From an uncultured Gammaproteobacteria bacterium (lineage in GTDB: Bacteria; Patescibacteriota; Microgenomatia; Levybacterales; GWA1-39-11): a DNA stretch of 64,000 bases. The stretch lies in contig CAZHDZ010000003.1 of NCBI GenBank assembly GCA_964531275.1, positions 33,208 through 97,207 of the forward strand, given 5' to 3'. A program made the position numbers and the translations under genes. Within the stretch, counting starts at the first letter, position 1. Every line of letters starts with the position of its first letter. The notes below the pieces were generated by a model. That model did no database searches. It worked only from the letters and a program-made list of their open reading frames with translations, and was not told where the DNA came from. Positions 1,338-33,471 of the stretch are shown here, piece after piece.

Positions 1338-2363
1338 TTGAAACAGAAGCAAACAATCCTTTTCTTAACTAGATTATACCACCCACACATAGGAGGTGTC
1401 GAGAAGCACGTCTACATGGTTGCTCAGTCACTTTTAAATAGGGGCTATAAGGTTGTTGTTGTTACTGAGCAATTTGACTCAAGGCTTCCTCTTACTGAAG
1501 TAGCAGACAATGTTATCATTCATCGCATTCCGATAGCTAAAAAGGAAAAGCTTAAGAAATTTTGGATTTGGAGTTGGGTCATTATGAATAGGGATGTCTT
1601 TTTTAAAGCGCGTGTTATACATGTTCATGACGTTTTTTTCTGGCTTTTGCCCCTTAGGCCCTTCCTCTCTAAAAGGAATATATTTACAACCTTTCATGGT
1701 TATGAAGATTATCCTATAAAACGACGTTGGATCATTATGAGAAAGATAATTGAGAAATTATCTTATGGCACAATTTGCATTGGAGACTTCATGAAAAAAT
1801 GGTATAAGTCTTCTCCTAGCTACGTAAGTTATGGCGCCGTAGAAATGGCAAAAGCTAATGTAGATTACACAGATTCATCAGCGATATTTTTTGGTAGGCT
1901 TGAGCAACAGACAGGCATTCTAGAATACATATCAGCCTATAAAATTATAAAAAAGAAACATCCCAGGTTTAAATTGACGGTGATAGGTGATGGTCCTTTA
2001 AGAGAGATGCTCCCGAAAGGCGTAATTCATATGGGTTTTGAGGCTAATATTGAAAAATTCATAGCACCACACCGATTTATATTTGTTTCTCGTTATCTGT
2101 CAATGTTTGAGGCTATTATTCAAAAAAAAGAAGTTGTAGCAGTATTTTCTGACCCTGTGAAAAAGGATTATTTGGAAATGTCTCCTTTTAAGGATTATGT
2201 ATTCATTACTAAAAGCCCTGCTGAGATTGCTAAATATGTCGATATGAGTCTAAAAGAAGGTCAAAATAGAAAATTAATTGAAGATGCATATGTATGGGCA
2301 AGGCAGAATACGTGGAGAAAATTAGTTAATACCTACCTCAATCTATGGGGAATTGCTAAATAG
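1338..2363 (+). CDS. Glycosyltransferase, GT4-like; probable TTG start
   Basis: The N-terminus ILFLTRLYHPHIGGVEKHVYMVAQSLLNRGYKVVVVT matches the Glyco_transf_4 Rossmann N-domain pattern. The C-terminal half has a degenerate E..(A)..G motif. Confidence 0.5.
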   Translation: MKQKQTILFLTRLYHPHIGGVEKHVYMVAQSLLNRGYKVVVVTEQFDSRLPLTEVADNVIIHRIPIAKKEKLKKFWIWSWVIMNRDVFFKARVIHVHDVFFWLLPLRPFLSKRNIFTTFHGYEDYPIKRRWIIMRKIIEKLSYGTICIGDFMKKWYKSSPSYVSYGAVEMAKANVDYTDSSAIFFGRLEQQTGILEYISAYKIIKKKHPRFKLTVIGDGPLREMLPKGVIHMGFEANIEKFIAPHRFIFVSRYLSMFEAIIQKKEVVAVFSDPVKKDYLEMSPFKDYVFITKSPAEIAKYVDMSLKEGQNRKLIEDAYVWARQNTWRKLVNTYLNLWGIAK

Positions 2364-4078
2364 GCAACTACAAGTATAAGTCCGAGGATGCTGAGAATAT
2401 TTGCAAAGGTAACTATTGGGGTAGCCTCAAAAGAGAGAAGTGCGTCATACGTACCAGGGGAAAGTGAAAAACGAATTTTATTGGACTTTTGAGCATCGAT
2501 GAAGCTAAAAGGATAGTTTTTTCCATTTATGTATAGATTCCATCCCGGAAAATAATACGTATTCTCAACGAATTCAGATTTTTGTACCACATTGAGCCTA
2601 TATTTATGCCTTGTTGGCGTTTTTGAGAGCACACTAATGGTTGATTGACCGTTTACTACTTCAAGGGAGCTTTCAGGTGGAATTTTTTCCCATATATTGT
2701 TTATGTCTCTACTTATTGGAGCTGCAGGTTGTAGGCCTTCAGCCTCAGCTGTAGCAAGAGGTGCGTGATGCATGAGGTAGGAATCATTAATATCGGGAAG
2801 CATAGCTCTTGTTCCCCAATTGAGAATTGTAGAAAGCATGGCAATTGTGGCTATTCCATAAATAATTTTAGGTTTTCTTACCTTGTTGATCGATATTGCT
2901 CCAATTATGGCTAAAACAAACGCAACTGGTAGCATCATACGATAGGAAAATTGGAAATTAGTTAAAAAGGGAATTGTTTTCCAAACAAATTCAGAAAATG
3001 GAAAAAGGAGAAATAGCAGAAAAGTAAATATAGTAAGAAGAATTATGGATGTTTTTTTAAGTTTCTTTTCTATTTTGCCTCGAAATAGTGAAATTAGCAA
3101 AAATACCAGTAGCGCCAGTTGTACAAATCCCATAGGAAAAGAGAGTTGGCCGATTGGACCCTGATAAAGAAAGCCCATTCTCCAAGGCGAGATAAAATAA
3201 AGAGTGGGATTCTCAAAAGATATATGTTTTGAGAATTCGACTTGTAAGGTATGCGCAGTTCCCTCAACTACGGGTAGCCAGTAAAAACTAGTAGCAAGAA
3301 ATGCACAAAAGAGAGATATGTATATAGGTATTACCTTCCAAGCCTCTTTTTTCCAAAAAGTACCTGATAAGCCTTTCAGCCTAATTAATATGAAAAGAGG
3401 GAATAGTATTATGAATGGAGTTGCTATAAGCGTAATCGCTTGATGCGAAAGCACTAGGCAGGAGTAAGTAAAGAATAGAAGGGCGACATATCGTTTTATG
3501 GGTCTACTAGATATTCTTAACATCGAATAAAATATCAAAGGAAGGAAAGCAAAAGCAAACAGCTCTCCAAGCGCAACACGAAAATGCAAATCAACTAAGT
3601 GATATGGAGCAAACAAATATAAGATAGCACCCAACGCGCTGCTATTTTTATTTAAGAATTGTTTTAGGAGAAGATACATTCCAACTCCTGAAAGTACAAA
3701 AACTAAGGCTATAGAAAATTTTTCAGAGGCTATAAATGATATTCCAATAAATTTAGGAATTGCAATTGCATAGTATGGAAGTGGATATGTAAAGAGAAAC
3801 AACGGGTATCCATATGTTGCATTTAGTATCGAAGCCCAGTGAACAGGGAAAATTCCGAACGAAAGAGAATTCCAAAGATCATATGCCTTAGCTATATTTA
3901 TTGCAAAGTCACCACTTTGGTGTACGCCTCTTTTAAGTAGTGAAAGTAAGGGTAGTAAAGATGCAAGTAATACGAAATAAAAACTAAACTTTTCTCTTCT
4001 TCTAATAAAAAAAATCGTTATTAAGAAAATAAGAAACGCAATAAGGCTTGTTGTAACCAGTTTTTGAGGGTCTAACAT
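2333..4078 (-). CDS. Polytopic membrane protein, YfhO/GT-C-like putative lipid-linked-sugar glycosyltransferase
   Basis: About 12 predicted TM helices. The C-terminal extracytoplasmic domain carries YYFPGWNLYINGK followed by a final TM helix, the Y.PGW...(V/I)(D/N)G signature typical of YfhO-type GT-C proteins. Confidence 0.5.
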   Translation of the reverse strand: MLDPQKLVTTSLIAFLIFLITIFFIRRREKFSFYFVLLASLLPLLSLLKRGVHQSGDFAINIAKAYDLWNSLSFGIFPVHWASILNATYGYPLFLFTYPLPYYAIAIPKFIGISFIASEKFSIALVFVLSGVGMYLLLKQFLNKNSSALGAILYLFAPYHLVDLHFRVALGELFAFAFLPLIFYSMLRISSRPIKRYVALLFFTYSCLVLSHQAITLIATPFIILFPLFILIRLKGLSGTFWKKEAWKVIPIYISLFCAFLATSFYWLPVVEGTAHTLQVEFSKHISFENPTLYFISPWRMGFLYQGPIGQLSFPMGFVQLALLVFLLISLFRGKIEKKLKKTSIILLTIFTFLLFLLFPFSEFVWKTIPFLTNFQFSYRMMLPVAFVLAIIGAISINKVRKPKIIYGIATIAMLSTILNWGTRAMLPDINDSYLMHHAPLATAEAEGLQPAAPISRDINNIWEKIPPESSLEVVNGQSTISVLSKTPTRHKYRLNVVQKSEFVENTYYFPGWNLYINGKNYPFSFIDAQKSNKIRFSLSPGTYDALLSFEATPIVTFANILSILGLILVVAYLAIPHRLR

Positions 4079-4105: not shown

Positions 4106-5032
4106 ATGAAGGCCGCACTTATTACAACAGTACTTAATGAAGAAGATTCTATTGGAAAATTTTTGGATTCCATTGTTTCCCAAACGCTAATTCCATCCGA
4201 AATAATTATCGTTGATGCCGGCTCGAAGGATAACACGATTTCTATAATTAAAAAATACTCCAAAAAACTTCCTCTAAAACTGTTTATACATAAAGGTAAC
4301 CGTTCTACCGGAAGAAATTTTGCGATTAAAAAGACAACGAGTGAATATATTGCTGTAACTGATGTTGGATGTACTCTTGATAAATTTTGGTTTGAGAGAA
4401 TTACTACTCCCCTTGCTAATAATTGTGATGTTGTCGCAGGTTTTTATAAGCCAATAACGCTCAATGTTTTTGAAAAATCATTAGCCACTTATACCTGTGT
4501 GCCAATTGATAAAGTAACACAAGATTTTCTTCCCTCATCTCGTTCTGTCTCTTTTTCAAAAAAAGCATGGACTAAAGTGGGTGGTTATCCGGAGCATCTT
4601 GATACTTGTGAGGATTTGGTTTTCGCGTCGGCGTTAAAAGCAGCAGGATTGAGATTTTCAGTAGCCAAGAACGCTCTTGTGTATTGGCAGCAGCGGAAAA
4701 ACATCATTGAGGCTTCTTGGCAATTTTATAGTTATGCGCTTGGTGATGGAATGGCAGGATACTATAGAATCCAAACCCCGTTTCTTTTTGGTAGATATAT
4801 TTTATTGGCCATAATATTATTGGCTTTTGCACATGTAAAAGATGTGATGATATTTTGGATAATTTGTCTATTAGCCGTTGGATATCTATCTTGGTCAATT
4901 AAAAAAAATTATAGGTATGTTAGGCATCCATACGCTTTTGTGTATCTGCCAATACTGCAAGTTACGTCAGATATTTTTGTTATTGCAGGTACTACTAATG
5001 GGACTCTCAAGAGGATTTTGAAAGCGATTTAA
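4106..5032 (+). CDS. GT2 glycosyltransferase with two C-terminal TM helices, GtrB/DPM1-like polyprenyl-phosphate sugar transferase
   Basis: LITTVLNEEDSIGKFLDSIVSQT...IIVDAGSKDNT matches the GT2 N-terminal motifs (DxD region). A C-terminal hydrophobic hairpin is present as in GtrB. Confidence 0.7.
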   Translation: MKAALITTVLNEEDSIGKFLDSIVSQTLIPSEIIIVDAGSKDNTISIIKKYSKKLPLKLFIHKGNRSTGRNFAIKKTTSEYIAVTDVGCTLDKFWFERITTPLANNCDVVAGFYKPITLNVFEKSLATYTCVPIDKVTQDFLPSSRSVSFSKKAWTKVGGYPEHLDTCEDLVFASALKAAGLRFSVAKNALVYWQQRKNIIEASWQFYSYALGDGMAGYYRIQTPFLFGRYILLAIILLAFAHVKDVMIFWIICLLAVGYLSWSIKKNYRYVRHPYAFVYLPILQVTSDIFVIAGTTNGTLKRILKAI

Positions 5033-5855
5033 TATTTTTCATAGTGCAGATAAATGCCCATCCGAAAAGTATATTAAGCGGAAAATATTTGGAGAAAGGA
5101 TAAAGGGCACTTATAAGATTATATAAAGCATGCTTAGTACTTTTCTTATTCTTTATGTATCCCACTTTTGTTTTTATGGTTCCAGCAAAACCATACTCAT
5201 TAAAAAGGCTTTTTAAATAGAAAAATGTTGGTTCATTAATATGTTGTATATGTTCTGCATCTGTACGCGGATCTTTAGGGAGTGCATCATAGATTTTGTT
5301 AAAAAAAATTCGATCAAAAGCACGAATAATATTATTTATGGGTCTTATATACATCGGGTATGTATAGTTATGTAGAATTTTATTGGTTCCGGTATGAGCA
5401 AAGAATATCCCATTTGGCTTTAGGACTCTTTTTACTTCTTGCATCATTTTTTTCATTTCCTGCTTGTTGAGATGCTCTATAACATCTAGTGCTATAACCT
5501 TGTCGAAGAAATTGTCATCAAAATCAAGCTTCGTAGCATTCATCTCATAAAATTCTATTTTCTTTTTAATAGTATCGGGGAAAGTTTTCTTTGCTCTATT
5601 TGCAAGGGTAATGCCATCTTTTGAATAATCAATTCCAATAGCCATTTTTGCTCTTTTGCCTAAATTAATTGTTATATCGCCTCGGCCACATCCAATATCA
5701 AGAATAGTGTCGTTTTTTCGTACATCAATTATGGATAGTAGCTCCTTAACCTCTCCAGCAAGATTTTTTCCATGCGTTTGGTTAAATTCAGATGAGCCTA
5801 GGCAAACTTTCGTGTAGTAGTCTTTGTCATATACAGTTGAGGGAATGGTTTTCAT
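5007..5855 (-). CDS. Class I SAM-dependent methyltransferase
   Basis: ILDIGCGRGDIT (motif I GxGxG), ALDVIEHL (motif II) and VLKPNGIFF (motif III). Confidence 0.75.
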   Translation of the reverse strand: MKTIPSTVYDKDYYTKVCLGSSEFNQTHGKNLAGEVKELLSIIDVRKNDTILDIGCGRGDITINLGKRAKMAIGIDYSKDGITLANRAKKTFPDTIKKKIEFYEMNATKLDFDDNFFDKVIALDVIEHLNKQEMKKMMQEVKRVLKPNGIFFAHTGTNKILHNYTYPMYIRPINNIIRAFDRIFFNKIYDALPKDPRTDAEHIQHINEPTFFYLKSLFNEYGFAGTIKTKVGYIKNKKSTKHALYNLISALYPFSKYFPLNILFGWAFICTMKNIKSLSKSS

Positions 5856-7072
5856 TTAGAAAATAGTTTAAATAATCTGTAGAGATAATAAGGAGTAATT
5901 ATTACATAAGAAATTGTAATTGCGCTAGCAGCACCGGTTATTTGAAATGTAAAGACAGACGGAATTATTAAGATAAGGAGAACAACTAAATGAATAAAAT
6001 TAACCTTGGCTAAAGTGTGTGGTATGCCAACGGATAAAAATAATGGACCTATTGGGCCAATAGAGGCTCTTAGAAATCCATATATTGCAAGTATTCTCAG
6101 AACACCTGAAGCATCTACCCATTTCGGTCCAAAAAGGATAGTAATTATTTCTTTAGGAAAAAGCAGCAGGGGAATGTTTATGAGTAAGGCAAAGATTGTC
6201 GTAAAGAGTATATGTTTTAGGAACAGTCTTTTTAAGCGTTTTTTATCTGTGTGAATTTTTGAGTATACAGGAAACATTATTTGCGACAGGACATTTGTTA
6301 TTTCATTAAAGGCCGTTGAGCCTGTTTTAAAAGCAAGATCATAAAGGCCAAGTGATGTAGGCCCTAAGATTTTTCCAACAACAATAGTGTCCAGTTGCGT
6401 TGTAAGATACGTTGATAATCCACCTGCTGTTATCCATTTTCCGTACGAAACTAGTTTTTTAAAGTACTTTTTGCTGAAAGGCTTTGAAAAATCACGAGTT
6501 GTCATTGCATACGATGTTATTAGTTCTGCTACAGTGCCAAGTAAAAGACCCATAACAAGCGCTAGCGAACTCTTGAAATAGAATGACAGTAGGATTGTTG
6601 AAAAAGTAAGAACCGCAACAGGAATTAAGCGGAAAATAAATTCTTTTTCGAATTTTAAATCTTTTTGAAAGCCTATTACATAGGGGTTCTGTAAACCTTT
6701 CAATATAGGTATTAACGCTGCAATTAGCAGAAGACCAGTAATAGAAGAATTTTGGAAAAAGGTCGCTACGAAAGGAATGGATATGATTGTTGCCAAACTT
6801 AGGAGCATTCCTCTAAGCATTGTTACCATGAGAAATGTTTTTGCTATTTTTTTCATGTCAATCTGCATATGAATTACGGCATATGAAAATCCTAGATCTG
6901 TTACTGTGTCAAATATTGTAATAATTGACACAACGATTGCGAAAGCTCCGAAGTCTGCAGGTGTTAACAATCTTGTTACTACAATTAACTTAAGTATTAC
7001 CAATCCTTGAGTGGCAATTCGAAGTGCCATCATCCAGGCAGTGCTTTTAAAAATTAGATTTCTGTAGCTCAT
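5852..7072 (-). CDS. Polysaccharide/oligosaccharide flippase, MOP superfamily, Wzx-like
   Basis: 406 aa with about 12 TM helices. The N-terminal pattern ALRIATQGLVILKLIVVTRLLTPADFGAFAIV is typical of the Polysacc_synt (PST) family. Confidence 0.65.
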   Translation of the reverse strand: MSYRNLIFKSTAWMMALRIATQGLVILKLIVVTRLLTPADFGAFAIVVSIITIFDTVTDLGFSYAVIHMQIDMKKIAKTFLMVTMLRGMLLSLATIISIPFVATFFQNSSITGLLLIAALIPILKGLQNPYVIGFQKDLKFEKEFIFRLIPVAVLTFSTILLSFYFKSSLALVMGLLLGTVAELITSYAMTTRDFSKPFSKKYFKKLVSYGKWITAGGLSTYLTTQLDTIVVGKILGPTSLGLYDLAFKTGSTAFNEITNVLSQIMFPVYSKIHTDKKRLKRLFLKHILFTTIFALLINIPLLLFPKEIITILFGPKWVDASGVLRILAIYGFLRASIGPIGPLFLSVGIPHTLAKVNFIHLVVLLILIIPSVFTFQITGAASAITISYVIITPYYLYRLFKLFSK

Positions 7073-7169: not shown

Positions 7170-8198
7170 ATGAAAAAGACTGTATTAATCACTGGGGGAG
7201 CGGGTTTTATAGGTATTAATACGGCAGCATATTACATTAGGAAAAAATACAATGTCATACTTCTCGATAACCTTTCACGAAAAGGAGTGGAAAAGAATAT
7301 TAAGTGGCTGACCAAAACTCATAAAAATAATTTCAAACTGGTAAAGTACGATTTAAAAGATACTTCAAGAAAATTAGAAAACATAGTATCCAAAGCTGAC
7401 ATAATTTTTCATTTAGCTGGGCAAGTTGCAGTGACAACATCAGTTCTTGATCCCATGGCGGACTTTAGAGCAAATGCCGTTGGGACCATGAATATGCTTG
7501 AAGCAGCGCGAAAGAGTAAGAAAAATCCCATATTCATTTTTAGCTCGACAAATAAAGTCTATGGCGATTTAGAAAATATAAAAATTCAGGAAGAAAAGAC
7601 TAGATATTCTTTTAAGAATTTACCTAAGGGAATTAATGAGATGCAGGGATTAGATTTTCATTCTCCATACGGTTGTAGTAAGGGGGCGTCGGATCAGTAT
7701 GTTAGAGATTACAGCCGGATTTATGGAATGAGGACAGTAGTTTTTAGACAATCATGTATTTATGGTCCACATCAATACGGATTTGAAGATCAGGGATGGG
7801 TTGCCTGGTTCATGATTGCAGTTCATTTGAATAAAGAAATTACCATTTATGGCAATGGTAAGCAGGTTAGAGATTTATTGTATGTAGGCGATCTCATTGA
7901 AGCATATGATTTGGCAATACAGAATATAAAGACAACATCGGGGAGAGTTTATAACTTAGGAGGAGGATTAAAAAATTCAATATCGGTGTGGCTCGAATTC
8001 GGGCCAATTCTCCAAAAATTATTCAGGAAAGACATCACTATCAAGAAGGACAATCCAAGACCGGGTGACCAGTTCATATTTATTGCTGATACTAGTCGTG
8101 CAAAGAAAGATTTCGGATGGGTACCAAAAACCAATCTTCCTGCCGGCCTAAAAAAGCTGTTCACATGGATACAAGAAAATGAAAAAGAATTTAGTTAA
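7170..8198 (+). CDS. NAD-dependent sugar epimerase/dehydratase (extended SDR), CDP-paratose/tyvelose 2-epimerase-like
   Basis: TGGAGFIG Rossmann motif; YGCSKGASDQY (the catalytic YxxxK); GWVAWF, as in tyvelose-epimerase-like SDRs. Confidence 0.75.
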   Translation: MKKTVLITGGAGFIGINTAAYYIRKKYNVILLDNLSRKGVEKNIKWLTKTHKNNFKLVKYDLKDTSRKLENIVSKADIIFHLAGQVAVTTSVLDPMADFRANAVGTMNMLEAARKSKKNPIFIFSSTNKVYGDLENIKIQEEKTRYSFKNLPKGINEMQGLDFHSPYGCSKGASDQYVRDYSRIYGMRTVVFRQSCIYGPHQYGFEDQGWVAWFMIAVHLNKEITIYGNGKQVRDLLYVGDLIEAYDLAIQNIKTTSGRVYNLGGGLKNSISVWLEFGPILQKLFRKDITIKKDNPRPGDQFIFIADTSRAKKDFGWVPKTNLPAGLKKLFTWIQENEKEFS

Positions 8199-21450: not shown

Positions 21451-21451
21451 A

Positions 21452-25927: not shown

Positions 25928-27424
25928 ATGGCAGTAGGCAAAACAGTTATTATCGTTTTTCTTTTATTTATTGTCTCAATACTAACTCGAATCCCGTTGG
26001 TTGAGAATATGCATTCTCATACCGACAGCTCTTCTATTACCTTGGCCCTTGTTAATTACGACTTAAATCAAGAAACTCCTGCGCCACCTGGCTATCCACT
26101 GTATTTAACATTCGGAAAACTCATCTATTATATAGTAAGAGATCCTCATCAGGCTTTAATTATAGTAAGCATTATATCAACTGCATTAGGTGCCCTTGGC
26201 TTTTACTTTTTGGGGAAATATTTAGACCATGAAAACACCGGAATTATAAGTGCAATTGTTTTCTTGTCTTCACCCGCAATCTTTTTCTTTGGTCTAACTA
26301 TTTATCCTTACTTGTTCATGATAGGAATCGAAGTTTTATTCGTTTTCTTTGCCTACATTACAATTTTTAAGAAAAGAAATACAGCTATTTTTATTGGCGT
26401 CTTTTATGCTTTACTTTTGGGAATAAGGCCTCAGGAGATTCTTTTAACCCTCCCCCTAGCCGTATATGTAATCTATAAATTGTCAAATAAAGCGAAGCTT
26501 CATGCTCTTGTTGCATTTGGAGTCATAACCATAGCATGGTTAATGCCCTTCATTTTTGTAAATGGTGGAGTAAGGAATTACTATTATATTCTAAGCAATG
26601 GAGCTTCTGAAGCATTGCCATTACCATCTTTTAATCCACTTATTTATAAACGTTTTGAGCTTCTGAACGGGGCATTTGTAACCCTGGGTGTTTCAAGTAT
26701 TTTCGCCATTTATCAGCTTATAAAAATGCTGATTGGGAATAAAAAAACTAATTATCTTATTCTCCTTGCATTATGGGCAATACCTTCGCTTCTGTTTAAT
26801 TTATTCATCAGAACGGAGCACGCTGGTTATCAACAAGGTTATTTAATGCCATGTATTTTATTAGCAAGTATTGCATTGAGGAGGGTATATTCTGTTAGGA
26901 AAATTCTGGCAATCGTATGCATTGCAATTGTTGTTCTGATCAATCTTTATATATTTTTTTACAACAGGGACCCTCTCTATCAAAAGCCTTATAGGCAGTC
27001 CTCATTTCACTATACAGACATTGTGAGAAACGATTATGTTCTCTCCGAAAAATTTAAATATATCAAGAGTAACTTTGCGCCTGATAAGACCATTATATTT
27101 GCAGGACCCTATTTCTGGAGACATGTAAGGTACTATTTACCTGAATTCGAAATATATATGATAGGGCGATTATTTGAAGAAGAAGATTCTAACCTGCTTA
27201 TAAAAGCATATGGATTGCGCTTTGAAAAAATTTGGAATACCAACAGAACTCTAGATTTACCAGATAAGGTAACAAGCATAGTCATTTTTGATGATGAGGG
27301 AAGTAGTTTTGAAATAAATAAAAAACGAATTGTAAAATTTAAAGGCATAACTAGTTTGACAATTGTTCCGGTTTCAAGGGCAATGCAGATTGGATATCAT
27401 AAAATTTATACAGTTATTAAATGA
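25928..27424 (+). CDS. Polytopic membrane protein (about 11 TM helices) with a C-terminal soluble domain, possible PMT/ArnT-like GT-C
   Basis: Hydrophobicity pattern. An N-terminal periplasmic loop carries PPGYPLYL. No firm motif was found. Confidence 0.35.
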   Translation: MAVGKTVIIVFLLFIVSILTRIPLVENMHSHTDSSSITLALVNYDLNQETPAPPGYPLYLTFGKLIYYIVRDPHQALIIVSIISTALGALGFYFLGKYLDHENTGIISAIVFLSSPAIFFFGLTIYPYLFMIGIEVLFVFFAYITIFKKRNTAIFIGVFYALLLGIRPQEILLTLPLAVYVIYKLSNKAKLHALVAFGVITIAWLMPFIFVNGGVRNYYYILSNGASEALPLPSFNPLIYKRFELLNGAFVTLGVSSIFAIYQLIKMLIGNKKTNYLILLALWAIPSLLFNLFIRTEHAGYQQGYLMPCILLASIALRRVYSVRKILAIVCIAIVVLINLYIFFYNRDPLYQKPYRQSSFHYTDIVRNDYVLSEKFKYIKSNFAPDKTIIFAGPYFWRHVRYYLPEFEIYMIGRLFEEEDSNLLIKAYGLRFEKIWNTNRTLDLPDKVTSIVIFDDEGSSFEINKKRIVKFKGITSLTIVPVSRAMQIGYHKIYTVIK

Positions 27425-27867
27425 GAAAAATAGTTCTTATTCTTTTTGTCAGCACCTTGTACTTATGGTTTGGGATAAGTATTGTTAGGACTTTTATTAA
27501 TCTGGGAAAATTTGTTGTGTCAGAAATGCATCTTGTGCTGTCTTCCGAAGAGCAAAGGAGGCGCGAAACATACGGGGAACTCTATGATTTCTGCATTTTC
27601 GTGAATGATAATACAACAGAAAGGTCTACAATATATTTTTTGACAAGTGATGTGCATGCTTTTTATTTTTGTAGATACGAGGTTTATCCTCGGAAAATGT
27701 TTTTAATAAAAGATCTTAATAGTACTAGTGCATATACAATAAAAGAAAATGATTATCTACTCGTACTTCAGTCGAATAATATACAGTTAATTAATGATGC
27801 ATATGGTTTTGGGCTTATAAAAAAGTATAAGCCTAGTTCTTTAGTTGGGGCTCTTTACAGAAAATGA
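27421..27867 (+). CDS. Hypothetical protein, one N-terminal TM helix plus a soluble domain
   Basis: ORF translationally coupled to both neighbours (4-nt overlaps). No recognisable motif. Confidence 0.3.
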   Translation: MRKIVLILFVSTLYLWFGISIVRTFINLGKFVVSEMHLVLSSEEQRRRETYGELYDFCIFVNDNTTERSTIYFLTSDVHAFYFCRYEVYPRKMFLIKDLNSTSAYTIKENDYLLVLQSNNIQLINDAYGFGLIKKYKPSSLVGALYRK

Positions 27868-29186
27868 ATACATTAATAGTTTTACTCACGCTTTTTTTTA
27901 CTGGATTACTTGGATTTAGCGTATTGCATCTCCTGGGTATCTTCGGAAAAGGAGGATTACGTGAAAGAATTTTATTTTCTTTTGGTGTAGGTGTTGGCAT
28001 TATGATGCTGCAAATGTACTTCTATTCGCGAGCGGGAATTGTTTGGGATCCTAATAACATCGTTGTTCCCTGGGGAATTCTTTATATTGCTGCCTTACTG
28101 AAACATTCTATATCCTTGCCAAACTCTAGAATAGTTGTTCCAAAATCAAGAAAAGTAAAAGCTTTATTCATTTTGGTGGTGTTATTAGGCGGCTTTACTT
28201 TAATTGAATCAATATTGCGACCTCTTAATGCATGGGATGGTTATGCGAGTTGGCTATTTAGATCCAAAATGTATTTTGTTGAAGGCTCAATAGACCCGTC
28301 ACTCGTTACCTATCTGCCTACAGAATACCCCCCCTTAGTTAGTATGATGGGAACGTTTCTATACACATTCCTTGGCCAAATTGATGACAGGTCGATATTG
28401 GTAACCTATGCGGTGTTTTATATAAGTTTGGGTGCAATTTTTTATAATTCATTAAAAACAAAATCTGGCAATTTTTTAGCCATACTCTTTACCTTCCTTC
28501 TTCTGTCGACTCAAAATCTAATACGTCACAGTGGACGTTTTGAAGCAGGACAAGCCGACGTTATTCTAGGTTATTATATTTTCTTGTCATTCTTGCTATT
28601 TATTAGAGTATTGAAGGATATTTCTTCTAAAAACTTACTTATTTTACACTTCATGCTTTTGATATCTGCATTAATAAAGAATGATAGTGTGCCACTCGTT
28701 TTGATTACAGAGTTTGTTGTGCTAGTTGTTACAATTTTCCGGTTTGGTTTTAAAAAAGTACTGTTATCGCTAGTATTTTTTGTACCTTTCCTTGATTGGC
28801 AATATTTCAAGCATCTTGAGGGTGTACCTTCCTCACCTGAATATATTAGTACGATCGTTCATCCAGAACGAATTCCTGTTGTTCTTAAGGAATTCACTAA
28901 AGAGCTCGTAAATATAAAGAATTGGAATTTGCTGTGGATAGCATTTGTTTTAAGCATGATTCTTGTTACTTTTAGAAAATTAAATACCGAGGTTTTCATT
29001 GCTTTTGCGATCATAATAATTGACATTATTGTTTTAGCTTCTGTTTTTTTTGTTACGACGCCAAATCCGTCTGAGCACATACCTAATGTCCTCAATCGCG
29101 CCCTTTTACACATAGCACCTGTTGGAGTTTATGCTATATGTATGTGTTCTGCTTTGTTAAAATTAAAACTGATACATGAAAAGTAA
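27864..29186 (+). CDS. Polytopic membrane protein (about 12 TM helices), function unknown (glycan-island membrane component)
   Basis: Hydrophobicity only. Confidence 0.35.
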   Translation: MNTLIVLLTLFFTGLLGFSVLHLLGIFGKGGLRERILFSFGVGVGIMMLQMYFYSRAGIVWDPNNIVVPWGILYIAALLKHSISLPNSRIVVPKSRKVKALFILVVLLGGFTLIESILRPLNAWDGYASWLFRSKMYFVEGSIDPSLVTYLPTEYPPLVSMMGTFLYTFLGQIDDRSILVTYAVFYISLGAIFYNSLKTKSGNFLAILFTFLLLSTQNLIRHSGRFEAGQADVILGYYIFLSFLLFIRVLKDISSKNLLILHFMLLISALIKNDSVPLVLITEFVVLVVTIFRFGFKKVLLSLVFFVPFLDWQYFKHLEGVPSSPEYISTIVHPERIPVVLKEFTKELVNIKNWNLLWIAFVLSMILVTFRKLNTEVFIAFAIIIIDIIVLASVFFVTTPNPSEHIPNVLNRALLHIAPVGVYAICMCSALLKLKLIHEK

Positions 29187-29883
29187 AAAAGCATACATGG
29201 GTGTAAAGACTCTCGAGGTTCTTGAAGGAGCAGATAACTATAATGCGTGGATCGCTTCAAGAATTCTTCCACACATTCAAAGCCCAGCCTTAGAAATAGG
29301 AGCAGGAACAGGTAATATTTCTGATTTTCTGTCCTCCGTAGAGGATCTTACCCTAACTGACATAGATGAAGAGCTCGTTAAGCACCTAAGAGGTCGTTTT
29401 AAAGGTAAAGGAAATATTACAACAGAAATATTTGATATCACAAGGAAATTTTACAAAATTACCAATAAATTTAAGACTATATACAGTGTGAATGTTCTTG
29501 AGCATATTAAAGACGACAATTTAGCTTTGAAAAATATGCACAGGCTCTTAGAGCATGACGGTAGAGTTATTATTCTGGTACCAGCCAAAAAAAGAGCGTA
29601 TAAAACTTTAGATAAGCACCTGGGACATTATAGGAGATATGAAAAGACTGAACTATCAGCCTTGATGCAACAGGCCGGTTTTGAGTTGGAGTATATAAAT
29701 TACTTTAACGTTGTTGGTCTCTTGAGTTGGATAGTAAGAGATTATATTGGTGGAAGTCAAGCTCATTTAAAAAAAGAGCATGTAAAATTATTTGATGCAA
29801 TTGTACCAATCCTCAGAATTGTGGAGCCAAAATCAAATTTACCTTTCGGAATATCTCTTATTGCAGTGGGAAAAAAGATATAA
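29176..29883 (+). CDS. Class I SAM-dependent methyltransferase
   Basis: ALEIGAGTGNISDFL (motif I); SVNVLEHIKDD; LLEHDGRVIILVP. Confidence 0.7.
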   Translation: MKSKKAYMGVKTLEVLEGADNYNAWIASRILPHIQSPALEIGAGTGNISDFLSSVEDLTLTDIDEELVKHLRGRFKGKGNITTEIFDITRKFYKITNKFKTIYSVNVLEHIKDDNLALKNMHRLLEHDGRVIILVPAKKRAYKTLDKHLGHYRRYEKTELSALMQQAGFELEYINYFNVVGLLSWIVRDYIGGSQAHLKKEHVKLFDAIVPILRIVEPKSNLPFGISLIAVGKKI

Positions 29884-29890
29884 TAAGCAA

Positions 29891-30634
29891 ATGGATAACT
29901 CTCTTACAATAGTTGTGCTTACCCATAACGATGAACTTAAGATTGTCGACTGTCTAGAATCTTTAGTATTTGCTGACGAGCTTGTAATAGTTGATGATAA
30001 TTCCACAGACAGAACAACAGAACTATGCAAGCAATTTACTAAAAACATATTTACCCACTCTCTTAGTTCAAATTTTGCAAATCAAAGAAATTTTGCCTTG
30101 AACCGAGCTAAAAGTAAGTGGGTATTTTTTGTAGACTCTGATGAAATTGTATCTAAGGCACTTAGGGATCAGATTCTTAAAGCCATTAAGTTAAAGGATT
30201 TCGCCGGATATTATATAAAAAGAATAGATCGCATGTGGGGAAAAAATCTGACCCATGGTGAGGTAGGAAAAGTAAGATTATTAAGACTTGGAAGACGTGA
30301 GAGTGGGAAGTGGCATGGCAAGGTGCACGAAACCTGGAGAATAATCGGCAGAACAGGGGAGCTTTCAGAGCCGTTGCTGCATATACCGCACGCAACTGTC
30401 TTTGACTTTGTAGAAGATGTCGACGAATATTCCTCCTTGCGCGCAGAAGAACTCATTGAGAAGGGTGTTAAGTCATCCGCATTTGATGTTATTGCATATC
30501 CTTCAGCAAAATTTATCCAAAATTACGTTTTAAGGAAGGGTTACAAAGATGGGATTCCTGGCTTTATTTACGCAATGCTTATGAGCTTCCATTCCTTTCT
30601 AGTTAGAGGTAAAATCTACTTAAGAAAGAGGTAA
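29891..30634 (+). CDS. GT2 glycosyltransferase. Start taken at MDNSLTIVV; the track start 29792 overlaps the previous gene and is rejected.
   Basis: LTIVVLTHNDE...ELVIVDDNSTDRT...FFVDSDE (GT2 DxD motifs). Confidence 0.7.
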   Translation: MDNSLTIVVLTHNDELKIVDCLESLVFADELVIVDDNSTDRTTELCKQFTKNIFTHSLSSNFANQRNFALNRAKSKWVFFVDSDEIVSKALRDQILKAIKLKDFAGYYIKRIDRMWGKNLTHGEVGKVRLLRLGRRESGKWHGKVHETWRIIGRTGELSEPLLHIPHATVFDFVEDVDEYSSLRAEELIEKGVKSSAFDVIAYPSAKFIQNYVLRKGYKDGIPGFIYAMLMSFHSFLVRGKIYLRKR

Positions 30635-30685
30635 CGTCCTGCCTCACTGTCCCCAACTCTGCATGAGATATAAATTAGTATTTGT

Positions 30686-32281
30686 TTGTTGGATTACGTT
30701 TGTAATTCTTTTATATTTTTATCATTTATTTTGCCGAAGGGGTATATGTTTGCAATAGCACTTCTTATAGGAGGTTACTCCTACGCAATATTATTTCTTG
30801 GACTTTTCCATTGGTTGTCTTTTATTCCCGTCTTATTAACAACTTTTATTTTTGTCGTGCTTGTTTTAAAAAATTTTAGATTACCTAGGATAGATCTTGA
30901 TAGATCAGAAATGATTATCATTTCCATAATAGTGGTTCTTGCAATAGTTAATTTAATAGGAGCGCTTGGGCCTGAGTTGGCGTTTGACGCACTTTGGTAT
31001 CATCTCCCAATTCCTCAGCTTTTTATAAATAATAACTCTGTCTATTTTATTGAAGGTAATCTTTTTTACTATTCCTTGATGCCAAAATTGGTAGAAATGT
31101 TGTATATACCAGCCCTTCTTCTTGCCAATGAAATACCTGCAAAATTGATTCATTATATATTTGGGATTTTATGCTGTGTTGCTACGTATAAGATTTCTAG
31201 ATTATACCTGGGAAGAAAAGAAAGTCTCTTGTGCGTGTTAGCTTTCTATTCCAATTTAGTTATTTCCTGGCTTTCAATTACTGCATACTCAGATCTTGCA
31301 CGAGTTTTCTTCGAAGCAACAGGCTTCTACTATTTGCTACTCTTTCTAAAAAATAGAACCCAAAAAACACTGTTGGCAAGTGGGTTAATTTTTGGATTGG
31401 CTATATGCACAAAAATACTGTCTGCAAGTTCTTTAGTAGTTGTTATCCCGATTTTCTTAAAGAATTTTTGGAAGAATAAGAGATGGGGAATCGAAAGCTA
31501 TATTGTTTTTGTTAGCGTTGCAGTTGCCTTAAGCATGCCTTGGTTAATAATAGCCTATTTCTATACGGGTAACCCATTTTACCCACTATTTACCCATTTA
31601 GGACTAAGAAACTTCTCGTTAGACCTTTTAAGCCCGTATGTATTTTTACAAACCTTTGTAAAAGCATTGTTGTTTGCTGATGATCCCATAAGTCCTCTTT
31701 ATCTCATTACTTTGCCGCTTATTTTTTACAAAAGAGTAATTCTTTACAAAAAATATGCGCCATTACTTATGTATGTAGTTTTTTCTGCTCTTGTTTGGTA
31801 TTTCTTTACACAAAGTGGCGGAGCTCGGTTTTTAAGCCTTCTATTGCCAGTTCTTACGGTACTATGCTACCTCTCGGTTAAAGAATTGGGGTGGGAATTT
31901 GCAAGGAGAGCAATCACTGCAACAATAATCATAATTTCATTTGCCACAATTTTATATAGAGGTGCTGCAAACGCTAAATATACCCCTGTAATATTGGGAC
32001 ATCAGACAAGGCAAGATTTTTTAATGGCTAACTTGAATTTTAATTTTGGGGATTTTTATGATGAAAATAGTGAAATAAGAGACATTGTTGGGAATGATTT
32101 GGTCCTTATTTCAGGAGTTCACAATTTATATTATGTAGATTTTAATTACACACTTTCAGAGTGGGATAATGCGTACAAAGCAAAGTATATATTAATTCAG
32201 GGTAATGTACCCCCTGTTTATAATCAGCTGTTAAGTATTTATAAGAATGATAAGACAAATGTAACATTATACAAATTATGA
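30686..32281 (+). CDS. Polytopic membrane protein, ArnT/PMT_2-like GT-C candidate
   Basis: About 12 TM helices. The first periplasmic loop carries FDALWYH...YFIEGNLFYYSLMPK, reminiscent of GT39/GT83 loop-1 acidic motifs. The C-terminal soluble domain is about 150 aa. Confidence 0.4.
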   Translation: MLDYVCNSFIFLSFILPKGYMFAIALLIGGYSYAILFLGLFHWLSFIPVLLTTFIFVVLVLKNFRLPRIDLDRSEMIIISIIVVLAIVNLIGALGPELAFDALWYHLPIPQLFINNNSVYFIEGNLFYYSLMPKLVEMLYIPALLLANEIPAKLIHYIFGILCCVATYKISRLYLGRKESLLCVLAFYSNLVISWLSITAYSDLARVFFEATGFYYLLLFLKNRTQKTLLASGLIFGLAICTKILSASSLVVVIPIFLKNFWKNKRWGIESYIVFVSVAVALSMPWLIIAYFYTGNPFYPLFTHLGLRNFSLDLLSPYVFLQTFVKALLFADDPISPLYLITLPLIFYKRVILYKKYAPLLMYVVFSALVWYFFTQSGGARFLSLLLPVLTVLCYLSVKELGWEFARRAITATIIIISFATILYRGAANAKYTPVILGHQTRQDFLMANLNFNFGDFYDENSEIRDIVGNDLVLISGVHNLYYVDFNYTLSEWDNAYKAKYILIQGNVPPVYNQLLSIYKNDKTNVTLYKL

Positions 32282-33471
32282 AACAAATAATAGTTTTTCT
32301 TACATATGTATATATATTTCTTTTGCCATTTGGTAATTTATTTAGAATAAAAGTAACCAATGGGGTTCAGATTGTTCCACAAGATATTATCGTAGGCCTA
32401 ATTGCCTTACTCATAAGTTCCTTTCTTCTTGTAACTAAAAAAGAGTTATTTACCCACAGATTTATTAAATATCAGCTCTTATTTTTGGGAGTCGGGACCG
32501 TCAGTCTGTTTTTGAACTTTATATTACATAGAGATGTCTCCCTAATTGTTTCTTTGCTTTACTCCGTACGCTATTTTTCGTACTTAATGCTTTTTTTTGT
32601 AGGAGTATATTTTCTCAAAGCAGATCTTTTATCAAAGTTATTGTATGGGGCATTGATAGTTTTTCTTATATTAGGCTTTGTGCAATATTTTTTCTTTTAC
32701 GATTTAAGGCCACTTTTCTATCTTGGTTGGGATAATCATCTCTATAGATTAACTTCGACCCTATATGATCCAAATTTCACTGGAATTTTTCTAAGTATAT
32801 TATTTTGGTTAAGCATTTTTTTCTCCACAACATTGTCTTACAGAAAAGCATTGCCTCATATTTTTATTGGGTTTGCTTCAGTTGTTGGAATATATCTTAC
32901 TTTCTCAAGAACCTCGCTTGTGGGATTGGTTGTAGGAATATTAGTATATGGTCTTTTAAAAAAACAATATAAAACGCTTACGGTAACTATAGCTGTACTT
33001 TCCGTATTAGTTCTATTCCTTTCAGACACACACATAGAAGGCCTCAATCCATTTAGGGTAGCATCTACTAACCAGCGCTTAACAAGCATTTCTCAAACAA
33101 TCACTATTATTGAAAAAAACCCAATACTTGGAGTAGGCTTTAATGCATATAGGTATGCTCAGTTGAGGTATGGGTTGAGGGAGCCTGTTGGTGCATCGGT
33201 TAGTAACTCTGATGCGGGTGCCGATAATAGTCTGCTTTTTGCAGTAGCTACCACTGGTTTTATTGGAATTGTAATATATCTGTTGTCATTTATTTCGCTT
33301 TTTAAGGATTATTTTTCGAACAAGAGTACTTTTTCATATATTCTCATTGCTATCCTTTCAGGTTTAATTATGGGAAGTTTTTTTACGAATATACTGTTCT
33401 TTACTCCCATAATTGGAGTGCTTTTTATGCTTATTCCCTTGAAGTTAGGTAAAATTAAGGTTGATAAGTAA
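32278..33471 (+). CDS. O-antigen ligase/polymerase-like (Wzy_C domain) membrane protein
   Basis: GIYLTFSRTSLVGLVVGIL and GVGFNAYRY...GADNSLLFAVATTGFIGIVIYL match the Wzy_C pattern (SR(T/G)..; G.G.G..; HNsyL...e.G..G). Confidence 0.6.
   Translation: MKQIIVFLTYVYIFLLPFGNLFRIKVTNGVQIVPQDIIVGLIALLISSFLLVTKKELFTHRFIKYQLLFLGVGTVSLFLNFILHRDVSLIVSLLYSVRYFSYLMLFFVGVYFLKADLLSKLLYGALIVFLILGFVQYFFFYDLRPLFYLGWDNHLYRLTSTLYDPNFTGIFLSILFWLSIFFSTTLSYRKALPHIFIGFASVVGIYLTFSRTSLVGLVVGILVYGLLKKQYKTLTVTIAVLSVLVLFLSDTHIEGLNPFRVASTNQRLTSISQTITIIEKNPILGVGFNAYRYAQLRYGLREPVGASVSNSDAGADNSLLFAVATTGFIGIVIYLLSFISLFKDYFSNKSTFSYILIAILSGLIMGSFFTNILFFTPIIGVLFMLIPLKLGKIKVDK

Follow-up and report, generated by a model that had tools for sequence, protein, structure and literature searches.

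A surface-glycan locus rich in GT-C membrane enzymes in an uncultured Levybacteria bacterium

Positions 1338-33471 of the window (the whole stretch of DNA analysed, 64,000 nt) form a GT-C-rich surface-glycan locus. The host lineage is Levybacteria (Patescibacteria/CPR), and the 32-kb stretch is a real surface-glycan locus, the cell-surface sugar-polymer factory of this uncultured, ultra-small bacterium. Every one of its parts is of a kind already known. In particular, the locus is unusually rich in extracytoplasmic GT-C membrane enzymes: it has seven, including two whose families are unclassified, which make up 39% of its length, and an eighth lies outside, at 56071. The extracytoplasmic GT-C toolkit proposed in the initial annotation is upheld, and all ORFs that it listed are present at the coordinates given below. 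Coding sequence takes up 99% of the locus, and many neighbouring genes overlap by 4 bp at start and stop. On balance, we lean towards the reading that it is the main surface-glycan biosynthesis site, in a fixed position between lepB and the atp operon, with a predicted four-step assembly.

Comparison of related genomes indicates that the site is fixed in many Levybacteria, with the signal peptidase gene lepB on one side and the atp operon on the other. The right flank is common to 12 loci and L031, and lepB on the left is also present in L029. A core of an Ig-like protein, a Wzy_C protein, a PMT_2 GT-C, and a GT2 is conserved, whereas the distal content differs among genomes. In the divergent genome L030, nearly all of the gene order is common to this locus, with identities of 58-67% for sugar-nucleotide pathway enzymes and 33-43% for GT-C enzymes. 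The right border of the locus is conserved:

33455..34180, minus strand, N-terminally anchored Ig-like (Glucodextran_B) protein, between the Wzy_C gene and atpC

The Ig-like protein (Pfam Glucodextran_B, 6.9e-14) is syntenic in 12 loci at 36-83% identity and is found at the same place in L031. Its gene may belong to the atp operon, because it lies on the atp strand with a gap of 1 bp to atpC.

The large membrane proteins and one small partner are as follows.

2333..4078, minus strand, PTPS_related/YfhO-like GT-C, 581 aa, ~11 TM, C-terminal YFPGW
9297..11498, plus strand, three-part fusion: GT2 domain at aa ~1-250, PMT_2 GT-C module at aa ~260-630, then a C-terminal domain
11491..14199, plus strand, YfhO-family GT-C, 902 aa, ~14 TM, FYPGW at aa 744
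14196..15734, plus strand, 512-aa GT-C, family unclassified, with I33-D34-E35-G36-Q37 invariant after TM1
25928..27424, plus strand, PMT_2/TMEM260-like GT-C, 498 aa, invariant D33
27421..27867, plus strand, single-TM protein, 148 aa, conserved upstream partner of the GT-C of 27864 type
27864..29186, plus strand, 440-aa GT-C, family unclassified, with R119, P120, D125, and W130 invariant
30686..32281, plus strand, 531-aa PMT_2 GT-C with an FDALWYH loop, core gene
56071..57594, plus strand, stand-alone PMT_2 GT-C outside the locus, ~9 TM

All eight large proteins are polytopic, with ~8-14 hydrophobic segments each, in accordance with the initial count of at least eight. The structure models agree in fold with Aft, Emb, and PimE, and the catalytic-loop Asp is invariant in each GT-C family examined. 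GT-C fold and family are established, while donors and acceptors are predicted. The seven enzymes of the locus are mutually divergent.

The proteins encoded at 2333 and 11491 had been paired as YfhO-type enzymes sharing a C-terminal Y.PGW motif. The family holds for 11491 (YfhO, 29.8 bits vs a cut-off of 28.5), whose counterpart in L030 is a 917-aa YfhO protein at the identical position, but 2333 belongs to PTPS_related (37.8 bits vs 26.4) with YfhO below threshold. The motif is literal in 2333, with YFPGW at aa 509, but not in 11491. The two C-terminal regions nevertheless align with a score of 67, compared with 29.6 +/- 5.6 for shuffled sequences, none of 500 reaching 67, and PGW is absent from all other annotated proteins of the set.

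The ArnT/PMT-like assignment of three proteins is borne out by PMT_2 scores above the gathering score of 26.1 bits: 33.3 for 9297, 31.6 for 30686, and 36.1 for 56071. The core enzyme 30686 has syntenic counterparts in 12 loci, with identities of 37-54%. In 9297, the initial annotation missed the fused GT2 domain (9e-19, aa 4-128), which is cytoplasmic and rhamnosyltransferase/HpsN-like by NCBIfam. The full-length architecture recurs in 100 of the 150 best representative clusters, and thus in at least 100 elsewhere; GT2 motifs and G295-D296 are conserved in the homologues. Three further proteins had been called less certain. One of them, 25928, is a borderline PMT_2 member (25.3 bits vs 26.1), with PMT_2 present in 13 of 30 homologues and a TMEM260 match of its family profile in the PDB (E 0.014). 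The other two, 14196 and 27864, have no match in Pfam or NCBIfam and are GT-C by fold.

Three genomes combine the 14196-type GT-C with the dehydrogenase, the GT2 of the 19593 type, the DegT aminotransferase, the SDR, and the C-methyltransferase. A further homologue (P0016) lies on a fourth contig, which also bears 25928- and 27864-family GT-C homologues. The single-TM protein 27421 has no Pfam match; an ORF of 143-167 aa occupies its position in L002, L013, L030, and L031, with similarity detected in the first three.

The remaining glycosyltransferases, the flippase, and the Wzy_C protein are as follows.

1338..2363, plus strand, soluble GT4
4106..5032, plus strand, GT2 with ~3 C-terminal TM segments, outside the DPMS/GtrB class by sequence
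5852..7072, minus strand, MOP/Wzx-type flippase, 406 aa
8179..9300, plus strand, GT4
19593..20366, minus strand, GT2 of the polyprenyl-phosphate glycosyltransferase class (ArnC/GtrB/DPMS-like), without a strong hydrophobic TM segment
23337..24059, minus strand, soluble GT2 of the polyprenyl-phosphate glycosyltransferase class (DPMS/AglJ-like)
29891..30634, plus strand, GmaR/SunS/LgtF-like GT2, core gene, start ATG at 29891
32278..33471, plus strand, Wzy_C protein (O-antigen ligase/polymerase-like), core gene, ~11 TM

All four GT2 genes had been described as DPM1/GtrB-like. Judged by PDB and NCBIfam matches, only 19593 and 23337 belong to the DPMS/GtrB/ArnC class. The PDB matches of 19593 are solely DPMS (5mlz, 1.5e-10), GtrB (5ekp), and ArnC, its NCBIfam matches are PgfS, ArnC, and AglJ (~1e-10), and its identity in L029 and L030 is 58-64%. 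For 23337, the matches are DPMS (7e-19) and ArnC (3e-14) in the PDB, and AglJ (8e-40) and dolichyl-phosphate hexose transferase (8e-28) in NCBIfam. The class was rejected for 4106 (Pfam GT2, 1.7e-20), whose top PDB matches are chondroitin synthase, GalT1, and TarS. It was also rejected for 29891 (Pfam GT2, 2.6e-18), which matches GmaR (4.6e-15), SunS (3e-11), and LgtF-type enzymes with no DPMS/GtrB match in the PDB. The latter gene is conserved in 11 loci at 47-81% identity, and the annotated start at 29891 is preferable to that of the longest ORF (29792), because the homologues are 246-256 aa long.

Both GT4 genes are supported by Pfam: 1338 by Glyco_transf_4 (5.8e-16) and 8179 by Glycos_transf_1 (2.4e-18). 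A homologue of 1338 (40%) adjoins lepB at the same place in L029. The Wzx-like flippase was called correctly (Polysacc_synt_3, 1.3e-61; MOP flippase, 1.3e-51; TuaB, 1.6e-37), as was the Wzy/WaaL-like protein (Wzy_C, 60.5 bits vs 31.7), which is syntenic in 12 loci. The latter assignment is at the level of the Wzy_C family, with polymerase, ligase, and O-oligosaccharyltransferase as candidate roles.

The initial annotation missed about half of the locus content. The ~17 soluble sugar-pathway and transferase genes that it left out include the two GT4, an Arn-like N-formyl amino sugar route, 6-deoxyhexose enzymes, a C-methyltransferase, and three other methyltransferases. The nucleotide-sugar tailoring set is as follows.

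5007..5855, minus strand, SAM methyltransferase (Methyltransf_11 and Methyltransf_25, ~1e-21, Pfam)
7170..8198, plus strand, NDP-hexose 4,6-dehydratase-like SDR (GDP_Man_Dehyd 1.4e-56, Pfam; dTDP-glucose 4,6-dehydratase model 6e-55, under cut-off, NCBIfam)
15735..17015, minus strand, NDP-sugar C-methyltransferase (Methyltransf_14 1.2e-37 and Methyltransf_13 zinc domain, Pfam; 64-69% identity in L029 and L030)
17053..18099, minus strand, SDR, candidate UDP-uronic acid decarboxylase, UXS/ArnA-C-like (Epimerase 1e-42, Pfam; ArnA C-terminal half 2e-16, NCBIfam; UDP-glucuronate decarboxylase ~1e-29 among the top named PDB matches)
18289..19596, plus strand, NDP-sugar 6-dehydrogenase, Ugd/WecC-like (all three UDPG_MGDP_dh domains, Pfam; NDP-sugar dehydrogenase subfamily 327.8 bits, above cut-off, NCBIfam)
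20350..21486, minus strand, DegT/ArnB/LegC-like sugar aminotransferase (DegT_DnrJ_EryC1 7e-97, Pfam; LegC 5e-79 and ArnB model 3e-60, both under cut-off, NCBIfam)
21452..22237, minus strand, ArnA-N-type sugar N-formyltransferase (Formyl_trans_N 2.6e-26, Pfam; PRK06988 5e-54 and ArnA 1.2e-46, NCBIfam)
22356..23345, plus strand, GDP-L-fucose-synthase-like 3,5-epimerase/4-reductase SDR (GDP-fucose synthase 5e-81, 272 bits vs a cut-off of 500, NCBIfam)
24078..24992, plus strand, SDR epimerase/reductase (Epimerase 1.3e-53, Pfam; GDP-fucose-synthase-like 6e-40, NCBIfam)
24989..25885, minus strand, SAM methyltransferase (Methyltransf_23 4.8e-25, Pfam)
29176..29883, plus strand, SAM methyltransferase (Methyltransf_23 2.2e-13, Pfam), kept in most related loci (8 loci at 55-77% identity)

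Named-equivalog matches of all locus enzymes score under the curated NCBIfam cut-offs.

From these families, a four-step assembly can be proposed. Cytoplasmic enzymes would tailor nucleotide sugars: the 6-dehydrogenase, UXS-like decarboxylase, C-methyltransferase, DegT aminotransferase, and ArnA-type formyltransferase would yield an N-formylated, possibly C-methylated amino sugar by an Arn-like route, the 4,6-dehydratase and GDP-fucose-synthase-like reductases would yield one or more 6-deoxyhexoses, and three further methyltransferases would add methyl groups. The class members 19593 and 23337 would put single sugars, of predicted identity, on polyprenyl phosphate. The GT4 and other GT2 enzymes would lengthen a lipid-linked glycan at the inner membrane face, lipid-linked intermediates would cross via the MOP flippase, and the Wzy_C protein would polymerise or ligate. 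Finally, the seven GT-C enzymes, one of them GT2-fused, would move polyprenyl-phosphate-borne sugars onto the growing glycan at the outer face. Single-sugar carriers, on which the initial annotation based the whole system, would feed the GT-C enzymes at least in part; they are not the sole basis of the locus, which also has two GT4, three other GT2 domains, the flippase, Wzy_C, and nucleotide-sugar tailoring. Several points count against our reading. Two clear polyprenyl-phosphate sugar synthases would have to supply seven or eight GT-C enzymes, and an initiating phosphoglycosyltransferase (Bac_transf or MraY/WecA type), a GtrA- or SMR-type flippase, a chain-length regulator, and an LCP ligase are missing from the window and from the three related loci covered by Pfam tables. 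The sub-cut-off scores against named equivalogs and the family-level assignment of the Wzy_C protein count against it as well.

The proposed route resembles Wzx/Wzy O-antigen, capsule, and S-layer loci in its MOP flippase, Wzy_C, GT2/GT4, and tailoring enzymes, and in a fixed chromosomal site with conserved flanks, variable content, and lower GC. Unlike those loci, it has no initiating phosphoglycosyltransferase or chain-length regulator and is dominated by GT-C enzymes. It follows the Arn system (PmrHFIJKLM, L-Ara4N on lipid A) from dehydrogenase through decarboxylating SDR, aminotransferase, ArnA-type formyltransferase, and ArnC-class GT2 to GT-C. However, the matches are far under equivalog cut-offs, the dehydrogenase is closer to UDP-ManNAc dehydrogenases, a sugar C-methyltransferase is added, the ArnD deformylase and ArnE/F are absent, and the GT-C associated with the route is a member of the 14196 family rather than ArnT. 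Lipid A is not expected as the acceptor, since CPR bacteria are not known to make it. As in the multi-component (three-component) systems GtrA/GtrB/GtrV, CsbB/GtcA/YfhO, GtlA/GtlB, GacI/J/K/L, and lactococcal CsdAB/CD/EF, a GT-A/GT2 enzyme would make the polyprenyl-phosphate sugar and a polytopic YfhO/PMT_2-type GT-C would transfer it outside the membrane (PMC8035078, PMC5836110). The multi-component model permits soluble GT-A enzymes and Wzx-type flippases instead of GtrB and GtrA (PMC8035078); neither donor synthase here has a strong TM segment, and the locus encodes a Wzx-type flippase, in accordance with the GacI/GacK variant. In contrast to these systems, seven GT-C in one locus stand against two donor synthases, a GtrA-type flippase is absent and no GacJ-like membrane partner is recognised, a GT2 domain outside the GtrB class is joined to one GT-C, and two GT-C families are unclassified.

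The mycobacterial arabinogalactan/LAM region (EmbCAB, AftA-D, PimE) is likewise dense in distinct GT-C enzymes, which use polyprenyl-phosphate monosaccharides outside the membrane; Emb/Aft and PimE/Mpt draw on DPA and PPM. By analogy, the polymer here could be built mostly outside the membrane by a linkage-specific GT-C series from one or two such donors, the GT-C enzymes being more than side-chain decorators. We consider this assembly unlikely, though a serious alternative. The locus shares with the mycobacterial region its GT-C density and the fold matches to Aft, Emb, and PimE. It differs in that there is no kinship at the sequence level, DPA/PPM synthesis genes are absent, and Wzx, Wzy_C, and deoxy- and amino-sugar pathways are added. 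Rather improbable is protein O-glycosylation, in which the PMT_2/TMEM260-like GT-C enzymes would modify secreted or surface proteins (S-layer, pilins, the adjacent Ig-like protein) and the Wzy_C protein would be a PglL/WsaB-like O-oligosaccharyltransferase. MIR domains and GT39 membership are absent, Pfam PMT_2 also takes in ArnT-like enzymes that act on lipids and polymers, a Ser/Thr-rich acceptor was not identified, and the Ig-like gene may be an atp-operon member.

The reading of the large membrane proteins as transporters, or as unrelated proteins with chance motifs, is refuted at the fold level and deserves almost no credence: although 14196 and 27864 lack family matches and one source labels a 14196 homologue 'MFS family permease', the models match GT-C folds and the C-terminal motif region outscores all 500 shuffles. 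A horizontally acquired, strain-specific mobile island is largely refuted as well and seems very improbable. The locus has a GC of 0.350 compared with 0.384 in the rest of the window, but reduced GC is common for glycan loci and membrane proteins, and no integrase, transposase, or tRNA gene is found among the locus ORFs. Because the flanks and core are conserved in 12 or more Levybacteria and L030 retains near-full synteny at 33-67% protein identity, the locus is, as judged from these comparisons, inherited within the lineage and not the variable accessory DNA envisaged initially. The variation of the distal genes between genomes suggests that the glycan structure diversifies between strains.

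The glycan locus (1338..33471) contains 27 closely packed genes on both strands, is 99% coding and shows many 4-bp overlaps in the ORF survey. At ~32 kb, it takes up about 3% of a genome of 1.1 Mb (size taken from the scaffold of a related locus, L031). The locus has a GC content of 0.350, compared with 0.384 for the rest of the window. Genes are named here by their start coordinates. The left flank is marked by one gene.

560..1120, S26 signal peptidase gene (lepB)

On the right flank, an N-terminally anchored Ig-like (Glucodextran_B) protein is followed by the F1Fo atp operon and then by dnaE, gatBA, murT/gatD, and other housekeeping genes (window, Pfam). The Ig-like gene (33455..34180, minus strand) lies on the same strand as the atp genes with a 1-bp gap after atpC, and overlaps convergently with the 3' end of the Wzy_C gene. 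The Ig-like protein is kept at the same spot in all related loci, and its gene may be part of either the atp operon or the glycan locus.

By exact match, the sequence is found on a single metagenome contig, a 14-kb Logan contig from run SRR12762304; an NCBI contig of 156 kb carries the same proteins. The nearest genomes by AtpG are Candidatus Levyibacteriota/Levybacteria MAGs, and homologues of the locus proteins also carry Levybacteria labels, indicating that the organism is a member of Patescibacteria (CPR). Related loci L002, L003, L005-L009, L011-L014, L017, and L018 are titled 'uncultured Gammaproteobacteria'. Their gene content, synteny, and identity to Levyibacteriota MAGs place them in Levybacteria (CPR), and these titles seem to be placeholders or taxonomic errors.

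The initial annotation raised the possibility that the locus is accessory DNA. This is contradicted by at least 12 relatives that carry it at this very site and by the lack of any integrase or transposase among the locus ORFs. In 12 Levybacteria loci retrieved via AtpG, atpC, the Ig-like protein, Wzy_C, and a PMT_2 GT-C are fully syntenic. A GT2 of the 29891 type comes next in every locus that reaches far enough, preceded in a few by an extra gene. Identity of this core to the window ranges from 34 to 83%. Beyond the core, the gene sets are genome-specific and drawn from one repertoire of polytopic proteins, GT2–GT-C fusion, Wzx, DPMS-like GT2, and methyltransferases. L031, on a 1.14-Mb scaffold, has the same arrangement adjoining the atp operon. 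L029 shares the left flank, lepB and then a GT4 gene, followed by a different gene mix that includes PTPS_related, a 14196-type GT-C, a dehydrogenase, a 19593-type GT2, DegT, an SDR, and a C-methyltransferase.

L030, a 248-kb metagenome contig, has nearly the entire gene order from 2333 to 29186 in common with the window; its sugar-nucleotide pathway enzymes are 58-67% identical to those of the window, whereas its GT-C enzymes are 33-43% identical. In the closest genome (L002 13371..20849 compared with window 25928..33471), AtpG is 89% identical and the interleaved soluble enzymes 77-83%, whereas the GT-C enzymes and Wzy_C are 49-63%. The identity of GT-C enzymes and Wzy_C is thus well below that of their soluble neighbours and AtpG, indicating that the membrane transferases evolve much faster. 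What emerges is a glycan locus inherited vertically at a fixed site, in which the core is conserved, the distal content varies, and the membrane transferases evolve fast. The fixed site, conserved core, and variable distal content resemble those of O-antigen and capsule loci.

Seven mutually divergent GT-C enzymes (2333, 9297, 11491, 14196, 25928, 27864, and 30686) make up 39% of the locus, and an eighth (56071) lies outside it. As initially annotated, all eight are polytopic, with about 8-14 TM or hydrophobic segments each in a hydropathy scan. In Pfam, 9297, 30686, and 56071 score above the PMT_2 gathering score, and 25928 falls 0.8 bit short of the cut-off. YfhO (PF09586) matches the C-terminal part of 11491 only, at 29.8 bits against a gathering score of 28.5 bits; 2333 reaches 17.5 against 28.5 bits and matches PTPS_related instead. 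Of the C-terminal Y.PGW motifs proposed for these two proteins, that of 2333 is present (YFPGW), whereas 11491 has FYPGW, which is not a literal match. The two C-terminal regions are nevertheless significantly similar (score 67 versus 29.6 +/- 5.6 for shuffles). Thirteen of 30 database homologues of 25928 carry PMT_2 and/or TMEM260-like matches, and the profile of this family has a weak, marginal match to human TMEM260 in the PDB. No Pfam or NCBIfam family matches 14196 or 27864, and no NCBIfam family matches any of the polytopic proteins.

PDB sequence searches with single sequences or family profiles give nothing useful for 14196, 27864, or 30686, and in such searches no GT-C of the locus matches ArnT. 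Therefore, we compared folds instead. The AlphaFold (AF2) models of 14196 (pLDDT 87, pTM 0.87) and 27864 (pLDDT 85, pTM 0.89) are confident, and both are all-helical membrane bundles. The fold of the GT-C models resembles Pmt1, Pmt2, and Pmt4, and the proteins are assigned to the GT-C superfamily by this fold or by membership of a Pfam GT-C family. An indexed search of 5.8 billion proteins, which is of limited sensitivity, finds 25 homologue clusters for 14196 and 27 for 27864. All members found for either family come from metagenome assemblies, and every taxonomic name that they bear is a CPR one.

Conserved acidic residues are located in the expected loop. The 14196 family (alignment A1) has an invariant I33-D34-E35-G36-Q37 with D34/E35 in this loop, the 27864 family (A2) an invariant D125 in the motif AWDG, and the 25928 family (A3) an invariant D33. 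In the family of the fusion 9297, G295-D296 is conserved. Across the four families, conservation of these acidic-loop residues is complete or reaches at least 90%. For 30686 and 56071, the loop motifs FDALWYH and GDEPVRD, respectively, are seen in the single sequences only. In profile–profile comparison, the 14196 family matches the 25928 family with 92% probability (E 8e-7), and D125 of 27864 is aligned to D33 of 25928. The confident models, the invariant loop aspartates, and the profile–profile links rule out that these proteins are transporters with chance motifs. They are not recent paralogues either, because BLASTP detects no pairwise similarity among the polytopic proteins except a weak one between 56071 and the fusion 9297. 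The GT-C proteins are divergent lineages of old standing and not recent duplicates.

The 27864-type GT-C has a small neighbour directly upstream.

27421..27867, single-TM protein of 148 aa with no known domain

Counterparts of 143-167 aa occur in L002 (19096..19542), L013 (18659..19090), L030 (20262..20765), and L031 (9537..10004). Their position immediately upstream of a 27864-type GT-C is constant, often with a 4-bp overlap, and sequence similarity to 27421 is detected in those of L002, L013, and L030. The protein is probably a partner or accessory subunit of the 27864-type GT-C. Two paralogous ~110-aa proteins (55317..55637 and 55674..56024, plus strand) lie directly upstream of the stand-alone PMT_2 GT-C 56071. 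They have two N-terminal TM helices and a common charged C-terminal tail (EKHN...RDKLK), match no Pfam family, and are not GtrA/SMR-like.

The GT2 enzymes fall into two groups. Four of them had been read as DPM1/GtrB-like; PDB and NCBIfam searches uphold this for 19593 and 23337, but not for 4106 and 29891. The PDB matches of 19593 are DPMS, GtrB, and ArnC only. In the PDB, 23337 matches DPMS best (7e-19), with chondroitin synthase second and ArnC (3e-14) behind it; in NCBIfam, it matches AglJ (8e-40) and dolichyl-phosphate hexose transferase. Neither protein has a strong hydrophobic TM segment past the Rossmann-fold N-terminus. At E <= 1e-3, no DPMS, GtrB, or ArnC match is found for 4106, 29891, or the GT2 domain of 9297. 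The best matches of 4106 are polymer-type GT2 enzymes (chondroitin synthase, GalT1, and TarS), while its architecture, in length and C-terminal TM segments, is GtrB-like. Those of the 9297 domain are chondroitin synthase and TarS, and those of 29891, for which the start codon had been chosen correctly, are GmaR and SunS.

The initial annotation did not notice that 9297 is a fusion of an N-terminal GT2 domain (rhamnosyltransferase/HpsN type) to a PMT_2 GT-C module. The fusion is not unique to this genome. When 1.84 billion representatives are searched exhaustively with phmmer, 100 of the 150 top-ranking clusters have a length of 690-780 aa and align over their whole length, and the GT2 acidic motifs are conserved in the family. 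Literature searches on GT2–GT-C fusions returned nothing relevant. This common, uncharacterised architecture lends itself to biochemical study or structure determination. A 217-aa antisense ORF (9461..10114, minus strand) lies entirely within the fusion gene and is probably spurious.

About half of the locus genes encode soluble sugar-pathway enzymes, which were missing from the original inventory. The block 15735..22237 encodes a sugar C-methyltransferase, an SDR, an NDP-sugar 6-dehydrogenase, the ArnC-class GT2 19593, a DegT aminotransferase, and an ArnA-N-type formyltransferase. The SDR is UXS-like, its best named PDB relatives being UDP-glucuronate decarboxylases. The block has the enzyme logic of the Arn (Ara4N) pathway, with homologous domains, but every match scores far below the equivalog cut-off (ArnA 159 of 777, ArnB 204 of 631, and ArnC 39 of 529 bits), and a C-methyltransferase is added. 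No polysaccharide deacetylase (ArnD) or SMR-type protein (ArnE/F) is encoded in the window. The product is best described as a predicted N-formylated, possibly C-methylated, amino sugar on polyprenyl phosphate. In addition, the locus encodes a 4,6-dehydratase-like SDR (7170), two GDP-fucose-synthase-like SDRs (22356 and 24078) on either side of the DPMS-like GT2 23337, and three other methyltransferases, which point to 6-deoxyhexoses and methylated sugars as likely products. In L029 (1..21626), part of the locus is replaced by a WbpA/B/E/D-like set (NDP-sugar dehydrogenase, GFO_IDH_MocA oxidoreductase, DegT, and Hexapep acetyltransferase), together with Acyl_transf_3 and a thiolase/SDR pair, suggesting that this strain may make a different, acylated amino-uronic sugar.

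The rest of the set comprises two GT4 enzymes (1338 and 8179), a MOP/Wzx flippase (5852; Polysacc_synt_3, 1e-61), and a Wzy_C protein (32278; 60.5 bits). A GtrA/SMR (ArnE/F) flippase is found neither as a free-standing small polytopic ORF in the locus, which has the Wzx-type flippase instead, nor in the two 2-TM ORFs upstream of 56071, nor among the genes listed for L029, L030, and L031. The missing GtrA gene is not fatal to multi-component transmembrane glycosylation, because the published model accepts a soluble GT-A enzyme and a Wzx-type flippase (GacI/GacK) in place of GtrB/GtrA (PMC8035078). By the same token, the Wzx gene is no proof of a repeat-unit pathway.

We somewhat favour the reading that the locus as a whole directs the assembly of a surface glycan. 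Family and fold assignments, conservation of catalytic residues, and synteny are observed; we infer the substrates, the order of steps, and the acceptor. Cytoplasmic enzymes would tailor nucleotide sugars, two GT2 enzymes would put single sugars on polyprenyl phosphate, and GT4 and other GT2 enzymes would lengthen a lipid-linked glycan at the inner face. The MOP flippase would carry the lipid-linked intermediates across the membrane, Wzy_C would polymerise or ligate them, and the seven GT-C enzymes would add sugars at the outer face. Two observations weigh against a simple form of this model. No initiating phosphoglycosyltransferase or chain-length regulator (Bac_transf, MraY/WecA, or Wzz) matches an ORF of the window or of L029, L030, and L031, and no LCP ligase is found in the window or related loci; the initiating enzyme and the regulator may be encoded elsewhere in the genome. 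Moreover, just two enzymes are clear donor synthases, whereas seven or eight GT-C enzymes would have to be supplied. This imbalance keeps alive an otherwise unlikely mycobacterium-like reading, in which linkage-specific GT-C enzymes build the polymer outside the membrane. Protein O-glycosylation, with PMT_2/TMEM260-like enzymes and with Wzy_C as an O-oligosaccharyltransferase, is more doubtful still; 9297, 30686, and 56071 have the loop aspartate and the generic PMT_2 match only, with no MIR or PMT_4TMC domain that would mark a protein O-mannosyltransferase (GT39 PMT). The three readings are not mutually exclusive.

A bolder version of surface-glycan assembly, improbable as a whole, is that the main surface glycan of Levybacteria (~1.1-Mb genomes) is built mostly on the outer face of the membrane. 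At least seven mutually unrelated GT-C enzymes would be fed by just two polyprenyl-phosphate sugar synthases with no GtrA-type flippase, and the widespread GT2–GT-C fusion would join cytoplasmic and extracytoplasmic transfer in one polypeptide. If so, the GT-C set (33-63% identity versus 58-83% for its neighbours) would determine the strain-specific surface structure and, with it, the recognition between these presumed epibionts and their hosts or phages.

Patescibacteria probably live attached to the cells of a host, and next to nothing is known of the chemistry of their surface. In a 2024 perspective on Patescibacteria biology, the words glycosyl, glycan, polysaccharide, S-layer, and teichoic do not occur, and no relevant literature turned up on GT-C or glycan loci in CPR/Patescibacteria. 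Every component is of a known kind, both multi-component glycosylation and Arn-like pathways are well documented, and the mechanism is unsurprising. What is new is the concentration of seven divergent GT-C enzymes in a ~1-Mb-genome organism, the two CPR-named metagenomic GT-C families that lack a Pfam model, and the conserved lepB–atp position of the locus. Also new is the putative Arn-like module with its C-methyltransferase, which is consistently tied to one of these two families. The glycan predicted from the locus is complex and contains methylated, formamido, and deoxy sugars. The locus maps out candidate genes for the surface glycan of an epibiotic lineage, and it offers concrete candidates for attachment-mediating molecules and for strain variation.

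Two further features lie outside the locus. A GGDEF-domain protein is encoded between dnaE and gatB (43692..44621, minus strand) in this small-genome CPR bacterium. At 59815..62023 (minus strand), the gene for a 434-aa 'sugar-transfer associated' ATP-grasp protein (ATPgrasp_ST, 2e-70) with an aspartyl-protease-like C-terminus overlaps that for a 305-aa 7TM_transglut membrane protein, forming a two-gene unit.
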